NCBI GenBank assembly: GCA_038253185.1
Contig: JBBSHK010000001.1
Span: forward strand, 1-26,558
Reading direction: 5' to 3'
Length of the DNA stretch: 26,558 nt
DNA from: Anaerolineae bacterium
Lineage (GTDB): Bacteria; Chloroflexota; Anaerolineae; UBA4142; SHND01
Both the position numbers and the translations under genes were made by a program. The notes beneath the pieces were generated by a model. It was not told the DNA's origin and made no database searches. It worked only from the letters and a program-made list of their open reading frames with translations. This document shows, piece by piece, positions 2,498-17,366 of this stretch (position 1 is the first letter of the stretch; every line of letters begins with the position of its first letter).

Positions 2498-4174
2498 ATG
2501 AAGCAACGCAATACCAATAATTGGCTGGCTCGCTGTTTTTTTTCGGCGTGCCTTTTTATTTCCATCAATGGAAGCATTATTCTGACAGGTTGTGCAAGTT
2601 CCAGCCTCGCACCGACGCTCATCCCACCAACGCTCACGGTGGAAAACACGCCAGTGACCACACCCACCGCTATCGAAACGCCCGCGATCAATCCGAGCGC
2701 AGCGCCCGCCGCGATGATTCCATCCGCAACAATGCCTTTGCCGGCTTCGCCCACACTGACGCGAGTCGCGCTCGCGTTCACGCCGACGGCTCGTCCCACC
2801 ATTGCTGCGTTGAATGTTCCCACCGCGCGCACTGCTCCACCCGGCGTAAGCTCTGACATCAAGGTGAGCGAAGGCAGCGTTACTTTTGCGGCGTACCCCT
2901 TTGAAAAATTTTTGCAACCGCGCAGCGACCCCGCGCGCAATTTCACATTCGACGCGCTCGACCGCGACGCGTACGACCGCGCGGCGACCGGCGCGACTCT
3001 GACGAAAACTTTTCGCTCGGTCATTCTCGAAAATGAATTCTTGCGCCTGACCTTTTTGCCCGAACTGGGCGGAAGACTTTTCCAGATCACCTACAAGCCG
3101 ACGAACCAAAATCTTTTTTATAATAATCGCGTGCTCAAACCGACGCATTGGGGTCCGGCGAATCAGGGTGGTTGGCTCGCGGTCGGCGGGATGGAATGGA
3201 CGCTGCCGGTGAACGAGCACGGCTACGAGTGGGGCACGCCGTGGCAATACGCGGTAACACAGAACGCGAGCGGCGCGACAATTACACTCAGTGATTCTCA
3301 ATTAATTAATCGCGTGCGCGCGCAAATTCAAGTGACGCTGCCCGCGCACGCGGCGTACGTCGTTGTCCATCCGCGCGTTGAGAATCCGACTGCCAGCGCG
3401 ACGCGGTTGCAGTTTTGGATCAACGCGCAGCTTACGCTCGGCGCGTCGAAAAATGTTTCTCCGAACACCGAATTTATTTTGCCGACGCAATCCGTTTTCA
3501 TTCACAGCAGCGGCGATCAATTTATCCCCGAGGCGAATGTGCCTGCGGACGAGGCGACTGCCGCCGCGGCGCCGCTGAGTTGGCCCACCATCGGCGGACA
3601 CAATCTCGCGCGCTATAGCAATTGGGAAGATTATCTCGGCGTGTTCGCGACGAATCTCACGCAATCTTTTGTCGGCGCGTACAATCACGATGCCGAGTTG
3701 GGCATTGCGCGGATTTTTGCGCCACAGCAAACGCCAGGGGCGAAACTATTCGCGTTCGGTCCGAAATTTTGCTGCCGCTCAGAATTCAGCGACGACGGCT
3801 CGGATTATTTTGAATTGTGGGGCGGACTGCCGCGCACTTTTTTCGCGAATGACGACGTGACGATTCCCGCGGGCGCGTCGCGTGAATGGAGTGAGTCTTG
3901 GATTCCGTTCGCCGGAACGGGCGGGCTGTCCGCCGCCGCGCGCGACGCAGTGCTGCATCTCTCCTCCGCGAATGGCAGCGCGCAGGTGAGCGCGTATTCT
4001 GCGGTTGCGCGCGGTGGCACGTTGATGCTTTTGCAAGCGGGACGTGAGGTCAAACGTTGGTCGGTTTCGCTGTCGCCCGCCGCGCCCTTTCGCGCGAGCA
4101 TACCCATCGCCGATGGACCGGTGCAACTGCAATTGCTCGACACTGATCAGAATGTAATTGTGCGCACTGAATAA
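2498..4174 (+). CDS. Probable lipoprotein with Pro/Thr-rich linker and DUF5107-like domain
   Basis: Start moved from 2318 to ATG 2498 (promoter, signal peptide ending in lipobox LTGC); ILENEFLRLTFLPELGGRL...FYNNRVLKP...GGMEW recalls DUF5107. Confidence 0.75.
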   Translation: MKQRNTNNWLARCFFSACLFISINGSIILTGCASSSLAPTLIPPTLTVENTPVTTPTAIETPAINPSAAPAAMIPSATMPLPASPTLTRVALAFTPTARPTIAALNVPTARTAPPGVSSDIKVSEGSVTFAAYPFEKFLQPRSDPARNFTFDALDRDAYDRAATGATLTKTFRSVILENEFLRLTFLPELGGRLFQITYKPTNQNLFYNNRVLKPTHWGPANQGGWLAVGGMEWTLPVNEHGYEWGTPWQYAVTQNASGATITLSDSQLINRVRAQIQVTLPAHAAYVVVHPRVENPTASATRLQFWINAQLTLGASKNVSPNTEFILPTQSVFIHSSGDQFIPEANVPADEATAAAAPLSWPTIGGHNLARYSNWEDYLGVFATNLTQSFVGAYNHDAELGIARIFAPQQTPGAKLFAFGPKFCCRSEFSDDGSDYFELWGGLPRTFFANDDVTIPAGASREWSESWIPFAGTGGLSAAARDAVLHLSSANGSAQVSAYSAVARGGTLMLLQAGREVKRWSVSLSPAAPFRASIPIADGPVQLQLLDTDQNVIVRTE

Positions 4175-4183
4175 TTTTTACCA

Positions 4184-5527
4184 ATGAGCTATCCGTATTC
4201 CGAAGGACCTGAGCCAATGACCCCACGCCGCCAGCGCGAGCGCGGACGTAAACGCGCGGCGTCACAAAAGAGACCATCACCGCAGCTACGAGCTGCGCCG
4301 CGCCGTTCTTGGGGAGGCTGGATATTGTTTGCGGCGTTGGTGTCGTTCGCGGGCGCGGTGCTGATCCCTGGCGCGCTCGGGCTTTATTTCGGCAGCCAAG
4401 AGCGCGCCGCGTACTTGCACCAACAGGCAGTTCAGCATTATCAACAGGCGCTCACGTACGAGTCCGAAAATTACACCGAGCTTGCCATCGCCGAGATTCA
4501 GACCGCGTTGAAATATGATCCGGGTTATCAGGAGGCGGCGGATAAATTGCGGGTGCTGCAGGAAAAGGGCAAAGCCAGCGTGACCGCCGTGCCCACCGCG
4601 CTGCCGCTCGCGGAGCAATTGTTTCAGAACGCGCAGAGCGCGATTGCGCGACAGCAGTGGGCTGAGGCGCTGGATGCTTTGGAAGAACTCGTACGTATCA
4701 AGCCGGACTTGCGCGCGAGCGAAGTGAAAGCACTGCTGATTCAATCCTACCTGAACGCCGGCAAGGAATCGGTTGCGGCGGGACAGGTCGAACAAGCGCG
4801 CACGCGTTTCGATTCCGCGCTGTCGCTGGATCCCACCAACGCGGAGGCGAAATTGTTGCGCGCGCGCGCGATCTTGTATCTCAAAGGGGCGGAGGTGGTG
4901 AATTTGGATTGGCAGAGCGCGGTCTCGAATTTTCAGCAGCTGTATGGGCTCGATCCAAATTTTTACGATGTAAAAAATCAACTGCTAAATGCCTCGATCA
5001 ACTATGGCGATTTCGCTTCCGCGCAAAATGCCTACTGCCTCGCCTCGCGCGAGTACGAGCGCGCGGTCAGCTTGGGCGCGAATAGCACAGTCGAGAGCAA
5101 AATGGATTTCGCCAACGAGCATTGTATGCAGGCAGTCACCGCGCCGACGTTGACGCCCGCGCCGATTGTTATTGCGACAGCCATCCCGCGCCCGCGCGCG
5201 AATTTTTTTGTGCCAACGGGGCGCGTGGACAGCGCTGCCCCATGCGAAGGGAATGGCGGCGTGAGCGGTATGGTGCGCGACGCGCGCAGCAAGCCGATTG
5301 TCAATGTGGCGGTCCAGATTTATGATGACGCGGGTTATCATCCCGCGCCGTCGTTCAGCGGCACCGATGGCATTTACATTATTTCACTCGGAGTGAACGC
5401 CGGGTTCTATCACCTCGTGGTGCTGAATCCAAACGGGACGCCGGCGAGCGGTGTCTTTAATTTGAATTATCCGGGCGGCAACGTGAGTGGTTGTCACTGG
5501 CTCGTCGATTGGACCAAAACAGAATGA
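4184..5527 (+). CDS. Membrane-anchored TPR protein with C-terminal Cna-B/carboxypeptidase-regulatory-like beta domain
   Basis: Basic N-terminus, one TM helix, TPR-like repeats (ALKYDPGY, ALSLDPTNAEA), Pro/Thr linker, VSGMVRDARSKPIVNVAVQI...GTDGIYII. Confidence 0.75.
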   Translation: MSYPYSEGPEPMTPRRQRERGRKRAASQKRPSPQLRAAPRRSWGGWILFAALVSFAGAVLIPGALGLYFGSQERAAYLHQQAVQHYQQALTYESENYTELAIAEIQTALKYDPGYQEAADKLRVLQEKGKASVTAVPTALPLAEQLFQNAQSAIARQQWAEALDALEELVRIKPDLRASEVKALLIQSYLNAGKESVAAGQVEQARTRFDSALSLDPTNAEAKLLRARAILYLKGAEVVNLDWQSAVSNFQQLYGLDPNFYDVKNQLLNASINYGDFASAQNAYCLASREYERAVSLGANSTVESKMDFANEHCMQAVTAPTLTPAPIVIATAIPRPRANFFVPTGRVDSAAPCEGNGGVSGMVRDARSKPIVNVAVQIYDDAGYHPAPSFSGTDGIYIISLGVNAGFYHLVVLNPNGTPASGVFNLNYPGGNVSGCHWLVDWTKTE

Positions 5528-6912
5528 AAACACAACGAACTCTGCCAAGCCAAGACGTTTCACCGCAACGTCTCTACCGCACAGCGCAACGCGAAATTTT
5601 TTGGTGGAGCATGGTCGCGCTCGTCTGGATTGCGACCGCGCTGCATTTCGCCTTGCCTGCGCCCGTTTCGGCTCAAGCCGCAGCGCGCGTCGACGTCGCG
5701 AAAATCGACAGCAGCATTGATATGTTCACTCAGGGCTATGTCGAACGGGTGCTCGGCGTGGCGCGTGACGATGGCGCGCAGGCGCTCGTAATTCAACTCG
5801 ACACTCCGGGCGGCGGCTTGGAGGCGACCTACGAAATCATCAAAGATATTCTCGCGTCGAATGTGCCAGTGGTGGTCTATGTTTCACCTTCCGGCGCGCG
5901 GGCGGGTTCAGCCGGAGTGTTCATCACGTACGCCGCGCATATTGCCGCGATGGCGCCGGGGACGAATATTGGCGCGGCGCATCCGGTAGGCTTGGGTGGC
6001 GAAGAGATCACCGGCACGATTGGCTCAAAGGTGACGAACGATGCCGTCGCGCACATTCGCGGTTACGCCGGCACGCGCGGGCGCAATAGCGATTGGGCGG
6101 AGAAGGCGGTGCGCGAAAGCGTTTCCATCACGGAGAAGGAAGCGCTCAACATTCATGTGGTGGACCTGGTGGCTGCGGATATGAATGACCTGTTGAATCA
6201 ACTCGACGGGCGCGCGCTGACGGTGAACGATCGACAGGTCACGCTCGCCACGCGCGGCGCGACAGTACACAATCTGGATATGAATTTCTTTGAAGAATTT
6301 TTCCACCGCTTGCTCGATCCGAATATCGCGCTGATCCTATTGAACATTGGTTCGCTCGCGATTCTGGTCGAGTTGTATCATCCGGGCGTGACCTTGCCGG
6401 CGGTCATCGGCGTGATTTGTCTCACGCTCGCCGCGGTCGCGCTGTTTAATCTGCCGACGAATTGGGCGGCGGTGATTTTGATCGTTGCCGCCATTATTAT
6501 GTTTGTGCTCGACCTCAAGGTGACCAGTTTGGTGCTGACGGCAGGAGCGATTATTGCGTTTGTGCTCGGCGCGTTTTTTCTCTTCCGTCCATTCACTCCG
6601 CCCGAGCCGACCGCGCCGGATATTTCGGCATCGCCCTTTGTGATTGGTGGACTCGCGGCGCTGACCGCTTCCTTCTTTATTTTTGTTTTGGGCGCGGCAG
6701 TACGCAGCCGCCGTGCGCCGGTGGTCAGTGGCACCGCGCCATTATGGGGGGCGAGCGGCATCGCGACGACGGACTTGAACCCATTCGGGACGGTGCTGGT
6801 AAAGAGCGAGCATTGGAGCGCCACCACAGACCAGCCTCCGATTCACAAAGGCGAGCGGGTGAGAGTCACTGCGGTAGAGGGTTTGAAATTACGCGTGGTC
6901 AAGACCGAGTAA
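5524..6912 (+). CDS. nfeD: NfeD-family membrane-bound ClpP-class serine protease
   Basis: QLDTPGG, RAGSAG (Ser), APGTNIGAAHPV, KVTND (Lys), TM domain and C-terminal OB-fold; start at ATG 5524 overlaps the upstream TGA (ATGA). Confidence 0.9.
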   Translation: MKTQRTLPSQDVSPQRLYRTAQREIFWWSMVALVWIATALHFALPAPVSAQAAARVDVAKIDSSIDMFTQGYVERVLGVARDDGAQALVIQLDTPGGGLEATYEIIKDILASNVPVVVYVSPSGARAGSAGVFITYAAHIAAMAPGTNIGAAHPVGLGGEEITGTIGSKVTNDAVAHIRGYAGTRGRNSDWAEKAVRESVSITEKEALNIHVVDLVAADMNDLLNQLDGRALTVNDRQVTLATRGATVHNLDMNFFEEFFHRLLDPNIALILLNIGSLAILVELYHPGVTLPAVIGVICLTLAAVALFNLPTNWAAVILIVAAIIMFVLDLKVTSLVLTAGAIIAFVLGAFFLFRPFTPPEPTAPDISASPFVIGGLAALTASFFIFVLGAAVRSRRAPVVSGTAPLWGASGIATTDLNPFGTVLVKSEHWSATTDQPPIHKGERVRVTAVEGLKLRVVKTE

Positions 6913-13819: not shown

Positions 13820-15034
13820 TCAGCCATTGACCGACGGTTGAACCTGGATGTTAGAAGTTGGAAGCGGGAGATTGGAGGGCGCGTTTATTTCCGGCTCGAC
13901 TGTCGCGTCGAGCGTATAGACATTCAGTTCGCCGGTGTCGCCTTTGAGCGCGATGGAATCCGTCCGGCTTACACTCAGGCGCGGCGCGAGCGCTTGATAA
14001 ATATTCTCCGTGATGTAAATCGTATCCGCCGGCGCGAGTCCCGCGAGAAAGTACGCCGTGTTCACTGGCGCGCCAATCGCGGTGTACTCGAGTCGTCGCG
14101 GCGAGCCGATGTTGCCGACCACGACTTCGCCCGAATCAATCGCGATGCCGATGTGCAGCGGCGGCTGCCTGCGCGCCTCGTGCGTGCGATTCATCTCTTG
14201 CACTTCGCGCTGCATCGCGCGTGCGGTCTGAATCGCGCGCCACGTTTCATCGCCAATCGCCAGCGGCGCGCCGTACAAGACCACAATCGCGTCGCCAATA
14301 AATTTATTCACTGTGCCGTCGTACGTGAAAATGATGTCGATCATCCGCGCGAAATATTGGTTGAGTGTGTGCACGACTTCTTCCGCGCCGCGCTCTTGAA
14401 TCATCCGCGTAAAGCCGCGAATGTCAGAGATGAGCACGGTCGCCTGCCGCTTTTCACCTTCGAGCGAAATGGACGGATACGAGTCGAGGATGCGGCGCGC
14501 GATGGACTTGCTGACGTACTTGCCGAAAATTTCTTTGGTGCGCTGCTGCTCTTGACGTTGCTCCTGCAAATAATCGGCAAAGAGTCCGACGATGGGAAAA
14601 AGTCCGGCGACGCCGAGCGGATACAACGCGAGCTTCAAATTCGGCTCGACATAATTCGGCACCGCGAGCGCGACCATACACAAGCCCGCGAGCGCGCCGG
14701 CGAGGTAATACATCAAGTAGCTGACCGGGCGATTCGCTTCCGCGCGTCCGCGCCAAAGGTGATAGATTCTGCGAATCGCGATGAGAAAGAGTGGCGTCGT
14801 CGCGCCGCCGATTGCGGCGAGGGTGGTTTCTTTGACGAGGTAGTATTGGAAATCGTTCGCGAGTGCGCCGAGCGCGAGTCCGAGACCGAGTCCGAGAATA
14901 ATTGCGACGCCGAAGGTGATCGACGAGAGCAGACGCAGCGGCGCATAAACCGTTTCGCGCAAGAGGAATGCCAAGCGCGCGTCGCTTTCGAGATTAACCC
15001 GCGCGGGGAAATTGGGTCGGGTCGAATTTTTCAT
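13820..15034 (-). CDS. Membrane-anchored class III adenylate/guanylate cyclase-domain protein, probably catalytically impaired
   Basis: Hydrophobic N-terminal helices; SDIRGFT, NKFIGDAI, GIAIDSGEVVVGNIG, YTAIGAPVNTAYFL. Confidence 0.88.
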   Translation of the reverse strand: MKNSTRPNFPARVNLESDARLAFLLRETVYAPLRLLSSITFGVAIILGLGLGLALGALANDFQYYLVKETTLAAIGGATTPLFLIAIRRIYHLWRGRAEANRPVSYLMYYLAGALAGLCMVALAVPNYVEPNLKLALYPLGVAGLFPIVGLFADYLQEQRQEQQRTKEIFGKYVSKSIARRILDSYPSISLEGEKRQATVLISDIRGFTRMIQERGAEEVVHTLNQYFARMIDIIFTYDGTVNKFIGDAIVVLYGAPLAIGDETWRAIQTARAMQREVQEMNRTHEARRQPPLHIGIAIDSGEVVVGNIGSPRRLEYTAIGAPVNTAYFLAGLAPADTIYITENIYQALAPRLSVSRTDSIALKGDTGELNVYTLDATVEPEINAPSNLPLPTSNIQVQPSVNG

Positions 15035-15175: not shown

Positions 15176-15204
15176 TTGACTTGGGCGAAATACAAATCTA
15201 TAAT
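15176..15204 (+). promoter_or_regulatory. Near-consensus sigma70 promoter for the small-protein/NLR operon
   Basis: TTGACT (15176-15181) - 17 nt - TATAAT (15199-15204). Confidence 0.75.
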
Positions 15205-15259
15205 TCACTTGTGGTTCCTAAAACAAGATTGGAAGAATTTAGAAAGCTAGGAGGCTTTT

Positions 15260-15556
15260 ATGGACACGCTCACCTTTGCAGCGATCGTGATTCTTGCCCT
15301 CGTTCTGCTTGCCATCATCATTCAGTACGGCAGACGCGGCAAAATCAACGGTCGTATGAAAATCGGACCATTGGATTCGAGTGTTTCTGCTGGAGTGCCT
15401 GAAGAGACCCGCCCCGAATTGGATCAGGCAGCCACAGAAGGAGGTGAGATTTATCGATCTCCGCCCACACTTTCCGCCGCGTCAGCTGGAAAACTAACGC
15501 AAGCATCAAAGGGGCAAGGTAGCAAGATCGATGAAAGCGGGCCCTCGATAGTCTGA
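15260..15556 (+). CDS. Small protein with N-terminal hydrophobic helix and two C-terminal pseudo-repeats
   Basis: SD AGGAGG then ATG; TLTFAAIVILALVLLAIIIQY followed by RRGK; repeats LDQAATEGGEIYRSPPTL and LTQASKGQGSKIDESGPSIV. Confidence 0.8.
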   Translation: MDTLTFAAIVILALVLLAIIIQYGRRGKINGRMKIGPLDSSVSAGVPEETRPELDQAATEGGEIYRSPPTLSAASAGKLTQASKGQGSKIDESGPSIV

Positions 15557-15572
15557 ACTTTAGAGAACGTCA

Positions 15573-17366
15573 ATGAACCTCCCCGACCATCTTCGTCATT
15601 TCACTGATCGTGACGAGCAACTCGCCGCCTTCGACGCGCTGTGGGACGACGCGCGTTGGGCGTTGACTTTTAGCGGCGTATCGGGCGCAGGCAAATCGCA
15701 TCTCATCGAGTACCTCATCGAGACGCGCTGCAAGCCGCGTGCTCTCAAGTTTGTCAAAGTGGATTTTGACGCGGGTCCCGAAATTGACGCGGTGCCGGTG
15801 GCGCTCGCTTCGCTCGTCTCCGGGGAGGGGCGCGCGGATTTTGAGCAAGCCGCCCAAAAAATTTATCAAGAACATCAGGCGGCGATGCTTGAATTGGCAA
15901 AGCAAACACCTCGGCAGGTTACACTTGAACAGCGCGCGGAGGGCGGCGGTCAGATTCAGGGCAGCCCCGCCACTATTGATGTTCAATATCTGGAACGCCG
16001 CCGTGATTTAACGATCACTTTGCGCGACCGCATAACGATTGCCGCGCTCGATGCAATACACGCGGAGGACACTCCCGCCGCTGTTTTGTTCCTCGACACT
16101 TACGAAAAATTCGCGGATAACAACGAAGAAAAATTCGTAGCGTGGCTCTGGAGTTTCTTGGCGCAAGCGACGGAAAAGATGCGTGGTCTGCGCGTCGTCG
16201 TTGCGGGACGCGAGCAACTGCCGTATGCGCCGATCAAGTCCAGTACGCGCGTCTCGCCGCTTTCCGATTTCGATCCCCCAATGTGCGACAGGTTTCTGGG
16301 TGCTTGGGGTATAGACGACGCAGCACTGCGGCACGCCGCGTTTCAAATTTGGCGTGGACATGCTTTGACGACGCGGATGTTTGCCGAAGCCTACGACGAT
16401 GCGCGGAAAGCAAGACGCCCCATCACGCTGGCTGAATTGAGAAGCGGCACGATGGGGCGCGCCGCGAACGAGTGGATTTACGATTTAATGTTGTCGCGTT
16501 TACCTGAACCGCAGCGAACTGCCGCGAACTATGGTCCACTCCTGCGCCATTTCAATCAAGGCGCGTTGATGAACGCGCTGGATCTCAAAATGGACGACGC
16601 AACCTTTCATCAGTTTGTTGGTCGCTCTTTTGTCAAGCGCGTTGGCGTCGGCGACTACAAATTCCATGAAACGGTCCGTCAAGTTCAACGTGCCACACTG
16701 TACGCTTCGGGCGATCCAAAAGTAATCGAGGTTCACCAGCGCGCCGCGCAATTCTATGATAACTCTGACGGAGAAGGCAGGCGTGACCGACTCTATCATC
16801 TGTCCATCGCCGAGTCCTCTTCGACATTGGAGATGTGGAAAGGAGCGTTAGGGCAAGCCGCGTTTGATTTCGAGCACGAATGGTGGAACGAACTGTTGGA
16901 AGCAATGGAGACGCCGAGCGCACAAAAAAATCTGACGATAGAGCAACGCGCGAATGTGTTGCTCTATCGTATGCAGTGGCATTACTACCATCTAGAAGAG
17001 TTGGATGAGGGTTTGAGGAAAGGCAAAATCGCGTTGGAATTATTCCGTGCAGTGGGTGATCGCTTGGGCGAAGCCAACACGCTGCGAGCGATAGGCGATG
17101 TGCAGCGATTCCGAAAAGAGAACGACGCCGCGCTGGAGAGTTATCGGCAAGCGTTGGAATTATTCCGTGCGGTGGGTGATCGCGTGGGTCCGACAAACAT
17201 CTACTGGCGGCTGGGACGAATGTTGGCGGACAATGGGAATGTGCAACAGGCGATTCCGTTGATCGAGCAAGCCGTCGCTTTTGTGGAAGAGATTCAACAT
17301 CCCATCGCGCCCGCGTGGCGCGGTTACTTGGAGGAATTAAAGGTACGGAGTTTGAATTCCGTATAA
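15573..17366 (+). CDS. STAND/NLR-like P-loop NTPase with C-terminal TPRs and no N-terminal effector domain
   Basis: FTDRDEQL pre-P-loop motif at residue 10; GVSGAGKS (Walker A); VLFLDTYE (Walker B); VVAGR; GHAL (GxP-like); FHE (MHD-like); 40-aa TPR repeats. Confidence 0.85.
   Translation: MNLPDHLRHFTDRDEQLAAFDALWDDARWALTFSGVSGAGKSHLIEYLIETRCKPRALKFVKVDFDAGPEIDAVPVALASLVSGEGRADFEQAAQKIYQEHQAAMLELAKQTPRQVTLEQRAEGGGQIQGSPATIDVQYLERRRDLTITLRDRITIAALDAIHAEDTPAAVLFLDTYEKFADNNEEKFVAWLWSFLAQATEKMRGLRVVVAGREQLPYAPIKSSTRVSPLSDFDPPMCDRFLGAWGIDDAALRHAAFQIWRGHALTTRMFAEAYDDARKARRPITLAELRSGTMGRAANEWIYDLMLSRLPEPQRTAANYGPLLRHFNQGALMNALDLKMDDATFHQFVGRSFVKRVGVGDYKFHETVRQVQRATLYASGDPKVIEVHQRAAQFYDNSDGEGRRDRLYHLSIAESSSTLEMWKGALGQAAFDFEHEWWNELLEAMETPSAQKNLTIEQRANVLLYRMQWHYYHLEELDEGLRKGKIALELFRAVGDRLGEANTLRAIGDVQRFRKENDAALESYRQALELFRAVGDRVGPTNIYWRLGRMLADNGNVQQAIPLIEQAVAFVEEIQHPIAPAWRGYLEELKVRSLNSV
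17031..17188 (+). repeat. Direct repeat of 38 nt at 120-nt spacing in the TPR region
   Basis: GCGTTGGAATTATTCCGTGC(A/G)GTGGGTGATCGC(T/G)TGGG at 17031 and 17151, 36/38 identical. Confidence 0.9.

Follow-up and report, generated by a model that had tools for sequence, protein, structure and literature searches.

A compact two-gene unit lies on the forward strand of contig JBBSHK010000001.1 from an Anaerolineae bacterium (assembly GCA_038253185.1), in a stretch of 26,558 nt that was analysed as a whole and is here called the window. The unit encodes a small membrane protein of 98 amino acids (the partner) and a STAND nucleoside triphosphatase (NTPase) with a C-terminal array of tetratricopeptide repeats (TPRs). 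A short motif is found twice in the C-terminal tail of the partner and once inside the NTPase domain. An earlier note on this DNA proposed that the two proteins form an amyloid signalling pair of the kind known from fungal NWD2 and HET-S, and such a pair is considered here to be a moderately probable interpretation. The features of the unit are as follows, with coordinates given as positions in the window and amino acid numbers referring to the respective protein.

15176-15204, + strand: sigma-70-like promoter, TTGACT–17 nt–TATAAT, 5' of the two-gene unit and matching the consensus at 11 of 12 positions.
15249-15254, + strand: Shine-Dalgarno sequence AGGAGG, 5 nt before the ATG of the small open reading frame (ORF), from direct reading of the sequence.
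15260-15556, + strand: small partner protein of 98 amino acids, with an N-terminal transmembrane (TM) helix, a short linker and two C-terminal pseudo-repeats.
15269-15328, + strand: hydrophobic TM helix of the partner, residues 4-23 (20 residues), followed by RRGK; from the sequence and partner alignment A3.
15419-15472, + strand: partner repeat 1, LDQAATEGGEIYRSPPTL.
15494-15553, + strand: partner repeat 2, LTQASKGQGSKIDESGPSIV, with a start-to-start period of 25 residues from repeat 1.
15573-17366, + strand: effector-less STAND NTPase with a C-terminal TPR array, 597 amino acids; from AAA_16, AAA_22 and TPR_12 matches, an AlphaFold2 (AF2) model and Foldseek.
15675-15698, + strand: Walker A, GVSGAGKS, residues 35-42, following strand 30-34 in the model; G35, G38, G40 and K41 are invariant.
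15822-16055, + strand: helical-hairpin insertion (helices at residues 84-111 and 137-161) with the motif loop at its tip; AF2 model, with a predicted local distance difference test score (pLDDT) >84 for the helices.
15924-15977, + strand: NTPase-internal motif copy LEQRAEGGGQIQGSPATI, residues 118-135, family-conserved, between Walker A and Walker B.
16080-16106, + strand: Walker B strand, AAVLFLDTY, with D175 invariant; strand 170-175 in the model.
16938-17363, + strand: TPR sensor region of near-identical 40-residue units ALELFRAVGDR.G..., matching TPR_12 (E 3e-14).

Only 16 nt, on the same strand, separate the stop codon of the small ORF from the start of the NTPase gene. Promoter-like and terminator-like sites were sought on the + strand between the two ORFs and none was seen; the two genes are likely to be co-transcribed. 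When the sequence was re-read, the ORFs and their coordinates were as the earlier note had given them, as were the second pseudo-repeat and the ungapped match between the NTPase motif LEQRAEGGGQIQGSPATI and partner repeat 1 LDQAATEGGEIYRSPPTL, in which 9 of 18 residues are identical. By the positive-inside rule, the C-terminal repeats of the partner would lie in the cytoplasm.

The partner repeats are 17-20 residues long and take the form h-x-Q-x-A-x3-G-x-I-x2-S-x-h-x-h. Both Q56 and Q81 are invariant in alignment A3, and the distance from the start of one repeat to the start of the other is constant across partners, at 24-25 residues. The motif is enriched in Q, G, I and S and depleted in L, a composition that is partly BASS-like (BASS being the bacterial amyloid signalling motifs). 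The small protein has no family match in Pfam, NCBIfam or PADLOC, a protein atlas search gave no useful match, and a word-indexed homologue search returned the protein itself alone. Relatives of the partner were identified through the gene neighbourhoods of homologous NTPases.

What kind of protein is the NTPase? Walker A (GVSGAGKS) and Walker B (VLFLDTYE, with D175) are invariant in the family and both follow beta-strands in the model. Pfam gives weak matches to AAA_22, AAA_16 and nSTAND6 and a strong match to TPR_12, while PADLOC returns generic NTPase and TPR models and no system assignment beyond these. About 20 full-length homologues (30-58% identity), from metagenome-assembled genomes of Chloroflexota and from metagenomes, share a common N-terminus, and all carry the motif at the same place. 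Since every homologue shows conservation of the N-terminus from the first residue onward, the NTPase has no N-terminal effector domain, in agreement with the earlier description of an effector-less receptor.

The AF2 model of the NTPase, made with the homologue alignment, shows a STAND-TPR fold (pLDDT 88, predicted template modelling score 0.80). With this model Foldseek finds the STAND-TPR structure 6mfv (E 8e-11), MalT (8bob, 2e-8) and CED-4 (2a5y, 7e-6), and Avs3 and NOD2 too. The only low-confidence stretch is the loop of residues 112-136 (pLDDT 45-54) at the tip of the hairpin helices, which form an arm ~40 Å long between the Walker A and Walker B strands. As modelled, the NTPase motif is an exposed, flexible loop that is unstructured in the monomer. 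Because it is conserved in sequence yet unmodelled in the monomer, the motif behaves as an interaction motif and not as a structural element. The possibility that the insert is a conserved structural element of the NTPase, which the earlier note had named as a counter-explanation, was considered and rejected: the loop is the sole low-confidence part of the model, and it co-varies with the neighbouring protein.

The TPR region has a feature of its own. Successive TPR units contain ALELFRAVGDR.G, which is encoded by a 38-nt direct repeat (17031-17068 and 17151-17188; 95% identical, with a spacing of 120 nt). High conservation among TPR units of one protein, as seen here, has been described for NOD-like receptors (NLRs) with rapidly reshuffling sensors.

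Is the likeness between the two motifs specific to the pair? For the window pair, comparison with composition-preserving shuffles gives z=5.3 and p=0.001. The homologues fall into clades, of which clade A contains the window. A hidden Markov model (HMM) made from 18 clade-A NTPase-internal motifs only was searched against 42,808 six-frame genome ORFs and 20 partner proteins; after the NTPase itself, nine clade-A partners rank above every other ORF, and the small ORF of the window is the best non-self match in its genome. The motif of clade B is quite different, with SQVIDSSPESQQTMTA in the NTPase and IQETLDSPDSEQTMEG and QKQKSLHSPRSKQKMK as partner repeats, and an HMM of this clade likewise picks out the clade-B partners.

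The earlier reading implied that the motifs vary together within pairs, and this is borne out. Smith-Waterman alignments of the NTPase motif with the partner tail score 34.2 on average for a protein's own partner, whereas permuted partners reach 23.1±1.6 (p≤1e-5); in clade A the corresponding scores are 39.7 for own and 31.6 for swapped partners (p=0.002). In-register identities between NTPase and partner number 185, as against 154±7 on permutation (p=1.5e-4), although permutation p-values such as these are optimistic, since the sequences are related and not independent. Switches between motif variants are joint in both proteins, as seen for SPxTI and AEINI and for the QTM-type and VEAxxxSxIxxIxMD-type motifs. 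Thus, GQIHGAEINI occurs with GQIEKAEINT at locus L032, ARIEQHVADGSSVAASPNSI with ARIEQSATDGSAIVRSPNRI at L035 (13/20 identical), and VEARDSSSISHIQMD with VEADNKSTIEAIKMD at L071 (z 4.9). Judged from these comparisons of sequences, the NTPase and the partner are shown to have a motif in common that co-evolves between them. The DNA of the motif copies is ~59% identical and no DNA repeat is found between them, therefore the likeness is kept at the protein level. For the same reasons recent gene conversion was rejected as its source.

How widely is the pair conserved? A partner gene stands beside the NTPase gene in ~25 of 27 evaluable homologous loci, and the earlier expectation that homologous NTPases would have motif-sharing neighbours holds to this extent. 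All of these loci are from Chloroflexota except one from Streptomyces. The partner gene lies immediately upstream on the same strand, and is divergent in Streptomyces. Most partners have 2-3 C-terminal repeats of the motif variant of their own NTPase, so the layout of a one-repeat receptor and a two-repeat partner that was proposed from the window holds across the family. No conserved third gene accompanies the pair in the neighbourhoods examined.

The commonest type of partner is a protein of 91-145 amino acids with 1-2 TM helices and two C-terminal repeats (loci L021, L022, L024, L026, L002, L007, L008, L009, L010, L012, L014, L028, L031, L032, L034, L039, L040 and L041). Other partners have different N-terminal parts. 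At L035 the partner (686-1417; beside NTPase P0019) has an N-terminal effector-associated domain, EAD1 (PF19955, E 2e-17), two TM helices and two repeats, while the NTPase is without EAD1; this suggests that the L035 pair recruits further EAD1-tagged proteins. The partner at L006 is a TM protein with a weak holin-like match, the partners at L011, L013, L029 and L043 are helical proteins of 150-160 amino acids, and the L030/L071 clade has a 242-residue protein. Two further loci, known from gene tables, have adjoining ORFs of 107 and 108 amino acids. In Streptomyces (L036), the divergent gene encodes a TM protein of 111 amino acids with three S-x-h-x-x-S-P repeats that resemble SRISNSP of the NTPase, and here the sharing of the motif is suggestive (p=0.12). 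No partner was found upstream at L042, where the contig has a run of N, and the 108-residue TM neighbour at L003 shows no evident motif match. The distant STAND relatives in Ktedonobacteria (L004, L015-L020) have neither the partner gene nor the motif.

For the helical partner found in some members of the family, an AF2 model places four strands in the tail, two per repeat, as two beta-arches. Its helical domain weakly resembles the SesA-type helical domains found at the N-terminus of NLRs (AlphaFold Database (AFDB) E 5e-3, TM-score ~0.5), and Foldseek against the PDB returned nothing (best E 0.4). The label 'Bell domain' was considered for this protein and dropped, the PDB search being empty and the AFDB matches suggestive.

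The module is rare and patchy. A single-protein query found it in 4 of 401 sampled genomes of the phylum, ~7 full-length family members occur among 401 genomes of the class, and the module is single-copy in the genome of the window. A tblastn search with three family members against a plasmid collection gave no match. Neighbourhoods vary by locus and contain HicAB, XisHI, an integrase with ArdC-N, a Y1 transposase, or housekeeping genes; in view of these differences the pair behaves as a self-contained two-gene unit. At L031 the neighbours are a tyrosine integrase and ArdC-N (5162-6088 and 564-1349), and at L024 they are a Y1 transposase and HicAB (5992-6492 and 2967-3412). These mobile and conflict-related neighbours fit horizontal movement of the module.

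The two repeats of the partner (R1 and R2) carry a further signature. When R1 and R2 of 15 clade-A partners are aligned on the invariant Q, I and S, they form 31 opposite-charge and 3 like-charge pairs. Shifting the register by 1-3 residues removes this complementarity, and when each R1 is matched to an R2 taken from another protein, the value is 2.8±5.5 versus the 28 observed (p=5e-5). Among nine non-redundant representatives there are 18 opposite-charge and 0 like-charge pairs, and clade B has 16 and 0. The charges are swapped between lineages (K/E or E/K), which, as far as the alignments go, is compensatory change. Core position 14 holds the same residue in R1 and R2 (P/P, I/I or N/N), and in 9 of 13 pairs the NTPase copy has this residue too. 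Around a Gly turn, conserved positions that face inward alternate with charged ones that face outward. The in-register contact of R1 and R2 would thus correspond to two rungs of a beta-solenoid held by a HET-s-like ladder of salt bridges, an arrangement that would agree with the repeat structure foreseen in the earlier note. The NTPase copy has 2.3 charged residues per 17, compared with 4.2-4.4 in the partner repeats; with about half the charged residues, it could stack on either repeat. It is highly probable that in-register beta stacking joins the NTPase loop to the repeats of the partner. Prediction of a complex of the full NTPase with the partner had a score of 0.00 and placed the partner nowhere, which is evidence neither for nor against binding. 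The register of the stack is defined by the charge pairs that compensate each other and by the core residue that both repeats have in common, and this makes an unusually clean, testable structural prediction.

Which known systems does the pair resemble? As in NWD2/HET-S of Podospora anserina (motif HRAM), adjacent genes encode an NLR with one copy of the motif (R0) and a membrane-targeting partner with two C-terminal pseudo-repeats (R1 and R2). In HET-s, three salt bridges hold together two rungs of 21 residues each (PMC5485727), and the in-register charge compensation between the repeats described here points to a similar stacking of salt-bridged rungs. There are also clear differences. The motif of NWD2 is at its extreme N-terminus, whereas here it forms a loop that is flanked by Walker A and Walker B. 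The HeLo domain of HET-S is globular and its TM helix is released on activation, in contrast to the constitutive TM helix alone that is found here. The period of HET-s is 36 residues (21-residue repeats and a 15-residue loop) and not 25. Finally, the pair is bacterial and not fungal and shows no sequence similarity to NWD2/HET-S by a Pfam search, which gave no match to HET-s_218-289, Ses_B or RHIM at E≤0.1.

Among bacterial systems, the closest parallels are the Bell/BASS1-10/NLR pairs (Dyrka et al., 10.1101/2020.01.06.895854), which are likewise collinear, tightly spaced genes in the order effector then NLR, with a C-terminal motif on the partner and a STAND-TPR receptor whose TPR units are highly similar. 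BASS1 and BASS6 also have 2-3 pseudo-repeats in the partner and a single copy in the NLR, and BASS pairs are found in multicellular or filamentous lineages, Chloroflexi included. By contrast, the partner of the window is without a Bell domain and its repeats are more charged and contain Pro; on the published descriptions, this sets it apart from BASS.

A second parallel is Bab/Agp (BASS11) of E. coli, for which abortive infection with membrane alterations has been experimentally shown (Ibarlosa et al., 10.1101/2024.11.07.622273). Bab is a partner of ~100 amino acids that begins with a hydrophobic helix and has its amyloid motif at the C-terminus, and it is encoded beside a TPR-containing sensor with the same motif; the pair described here has a layout of this kind. 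Agp, however, has the architecture TPR-GreA/B-C-PIN with an N-terminal motif and is not a STAND NTPase, and Bab has a helical 'Babybell' domain and one copy of the motif where the partner has a TM helix alone and two copies. A more general likeness is to EAD coupling in STAND conflict systems, where separate sensor and effector polypeptides are joined by a small shared module (Kaur et al., eLife 2021, PMC8195603), and one partner of the family (L035) carries EAD1 itself. EADs, however, are folded alpha-helical adaptor domains of the death-like type, unlike the ~18-residue peptide of beta-arch type seen here, and the NTPase has no EAD.

The pair departs from the families of amyloid signalling chiefly by the position of the receptor motif, which is at residues 118-135 and not in front of the NTPase domain. 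In the literature examined, no motif internal to an NLR was found to be described. The motifs of BASS were defined and searched only in the N-termini of NLRs beside Bell-domain proteins (10.1101/2020.01.06.895854), and because of this restriction the published BASS screens could not detect an internal class. The earlier note had called both the motif inside the NTPase and the minimal effector unusual, and rightly so: receptor motifs described elsewhere are N-terminal, and neither a Bell nor a HeLo domain is present here.

On balance, it is somewhat more likely than not that the pair is a sensor and effector of the HET-S/NWD2 or BASS kind, in which amyloid-type templating would start from an internal receptor motif. 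Binding of a ligand or cue by the TPR array would lead to NTP-dependent oligomerisation of the NTPase, which would bring the hairpin tips together. The clustered single rungs may then seed a cross-beta stack, by which the membrane partner's two-rung tails would be recruited and templated. As the TM helices of the partner cluster or polymerise, they would damage the membrane, and the outcome may be regulated cell death of the abortive-infection type. If this is true, the principle of amyloid signalling can work from a loop embedded in a nucleotide-binding domain, an executioner can be reduced to a single TM helix and two beta-rungs, and such modules exist in Chloroflexota and probably in Streptomyces. 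With 98 and 597 amino acids, the module is small enough for reconstitution.

Several points weigh against templating. All receptor-side amyloid motifs described so far are N-terminal (10.1101/2020.01.06.895854; 10.1101/2024.11.07.622273; PMC5485727), and a loop tethered at both ends to the NTPase may be sterically unable to stack at a spacing of 4.8 Å. The partner of the window has no HeLo, Hell, Bell or other effector domain, just a constitutive TM helix and a linker, and its highly charged, Pro-containing repeats are unusual for BASS. The surroundings in the window are housekeeping envelope genes and not a defence island. On the statistical side, there is the optimism of the permutation p-values given above, the swapped-partner test is not significant in clade B (p=0.25), and the likeness of the motifs is individually non-significant for the pairs at L011, L013, L030 and L034 and for that of Streptomyces.

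The most serious alternative, although an unlikely one, is a closed 1:1 beta-sheet complex, with the NTPase loop as a third rung or strand on the two-rung tail and with neither polymer nor templating. The small protein would then be an anchor, adaptor or inhibitor, and the output would come from clustering of the anchor or from an unknown third component. All of the evidence for co-variation and in-register stacking fits such a complex equally well; moreover, tethering of the loop on both sides favours, by the geometry of the model, a closed complex over an open-ended fibril, and the EAD1 adaptor on the L035 partner suggests a scaffold role. Against this, one copy on the receptor and two on the partner is the layout that is a hallmark of HET-s-type polymers, and so is the charge complementarity, which would also hold from R2 to the R1 of the next subunit. 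The NTPase has no other effector, nor does a conserved third gene accompany the pair.

Could the loop and the repeats instead be alternative ligands of one site? TPR arrays bind short extended peptides. The site might be the TPR groove or a third protein, with the loop acting as an autoinhibitory pseudo-ligand with which the partner competes, and the exposure and flexibility of the loop and the presence of the motif in both proteins would suit this. This explanation is improbable. According to the family alignment, the TPR units are near-identical between clades A and B despite completely different motifs, which disfavours the TPR array as a receptor of the motif, and competition for a site predicts neither the in-register charge compensation between R1 and R2 nor the identical residue at core position 14. 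Very improbable, finally, is that the likeness has no functional meaning, being a structural element of this NTPase clade that resembles a low-complexity tail or the drifting remnant of an old duplication: a beta-like segment occupies the corresponding place in many of the more distant STAND relatives and some pairs show no significant similarity individually, but an old duplication predicts none of the excess likeness that is seen within loci, disorder in the model is limited to the motif, the partner-less distant relatives are also without the motif, and the genome-wide profile search is specific.

How far might templating from an internal loop extend? A profile search of 1.84 billion representatives returned 265 clusters at E≤1e-30 and 3,575 at E≤1e-10. 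In the best 150 matches, which include Streptomyces and Egibacteraceae proteins, the spacing between Walker A and Walker B is mostly 125-145 residues, and a variable beta-like segment of the form h-x-h-x-Q...G..I..S..h-x-h lies at the same place. It is possible, and is proposed here tentatively, that the 265 clusters, with thousands more at lower stringency, belong to a large, unrecognised class of STAND NTPases in Chloroflexota and Actinobacteria, in which single rungs on internal hairpin arms, assembled by oligomerisation, would template the polymerisation of membrane-anchored partners with two or three rungs. In all described systems (NWD2/HET-S, the fungal sigma and PP motifs, BASS1-11 and RHIM) the templating motif stands at a free terminus, and published genome screens have been confined to that location. 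If such a class exists, it would be a new structural solution for signal transfer of the amyloid type that N-terminus-based screens have missed. Knowledge of the family could broaden the search for functional amyloids and for the effectors of bacterial NLRs.

Some further observations concern the neighbourhood of the unit and individual loci. A membrane-anchored homologue of class III nucleotide cyclases (Guanylate_cyc, E 4e-20) is encoded on the - strand of the window at 13820-15034, divergent from the two-gene unit. It is probably unrelated to the pair, because it is not conserved beside homologous pairs. At L041, two truncated copies of the first 44 NTPase codons (reverse-complement 931-1101 and 1213-1383) precede the full gene at 1495. 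Each has an alternative tail of 12 residues, giving an ORF of 56 amino acids, and together they form a tandem repeat of ~282 nt that covers the 5' end and Walker A. The family NTPase at L043 (contig C168 of genome G407; 1119-2328) is broken into two frames near residue 130, which may reflect a pseudogene or a sequencing frameshift, and its helical partner P0197 is intact. On contig C34 of genome G839, 3-4 paralogous family NTPases, one of them split, lie within ~17 kb (310-326 kb; L068, L071, L072 and L073). The 242-residue motif-bearing partner is found directly upstream of L071 only, and the cluster may represent several sensors with one common effector.

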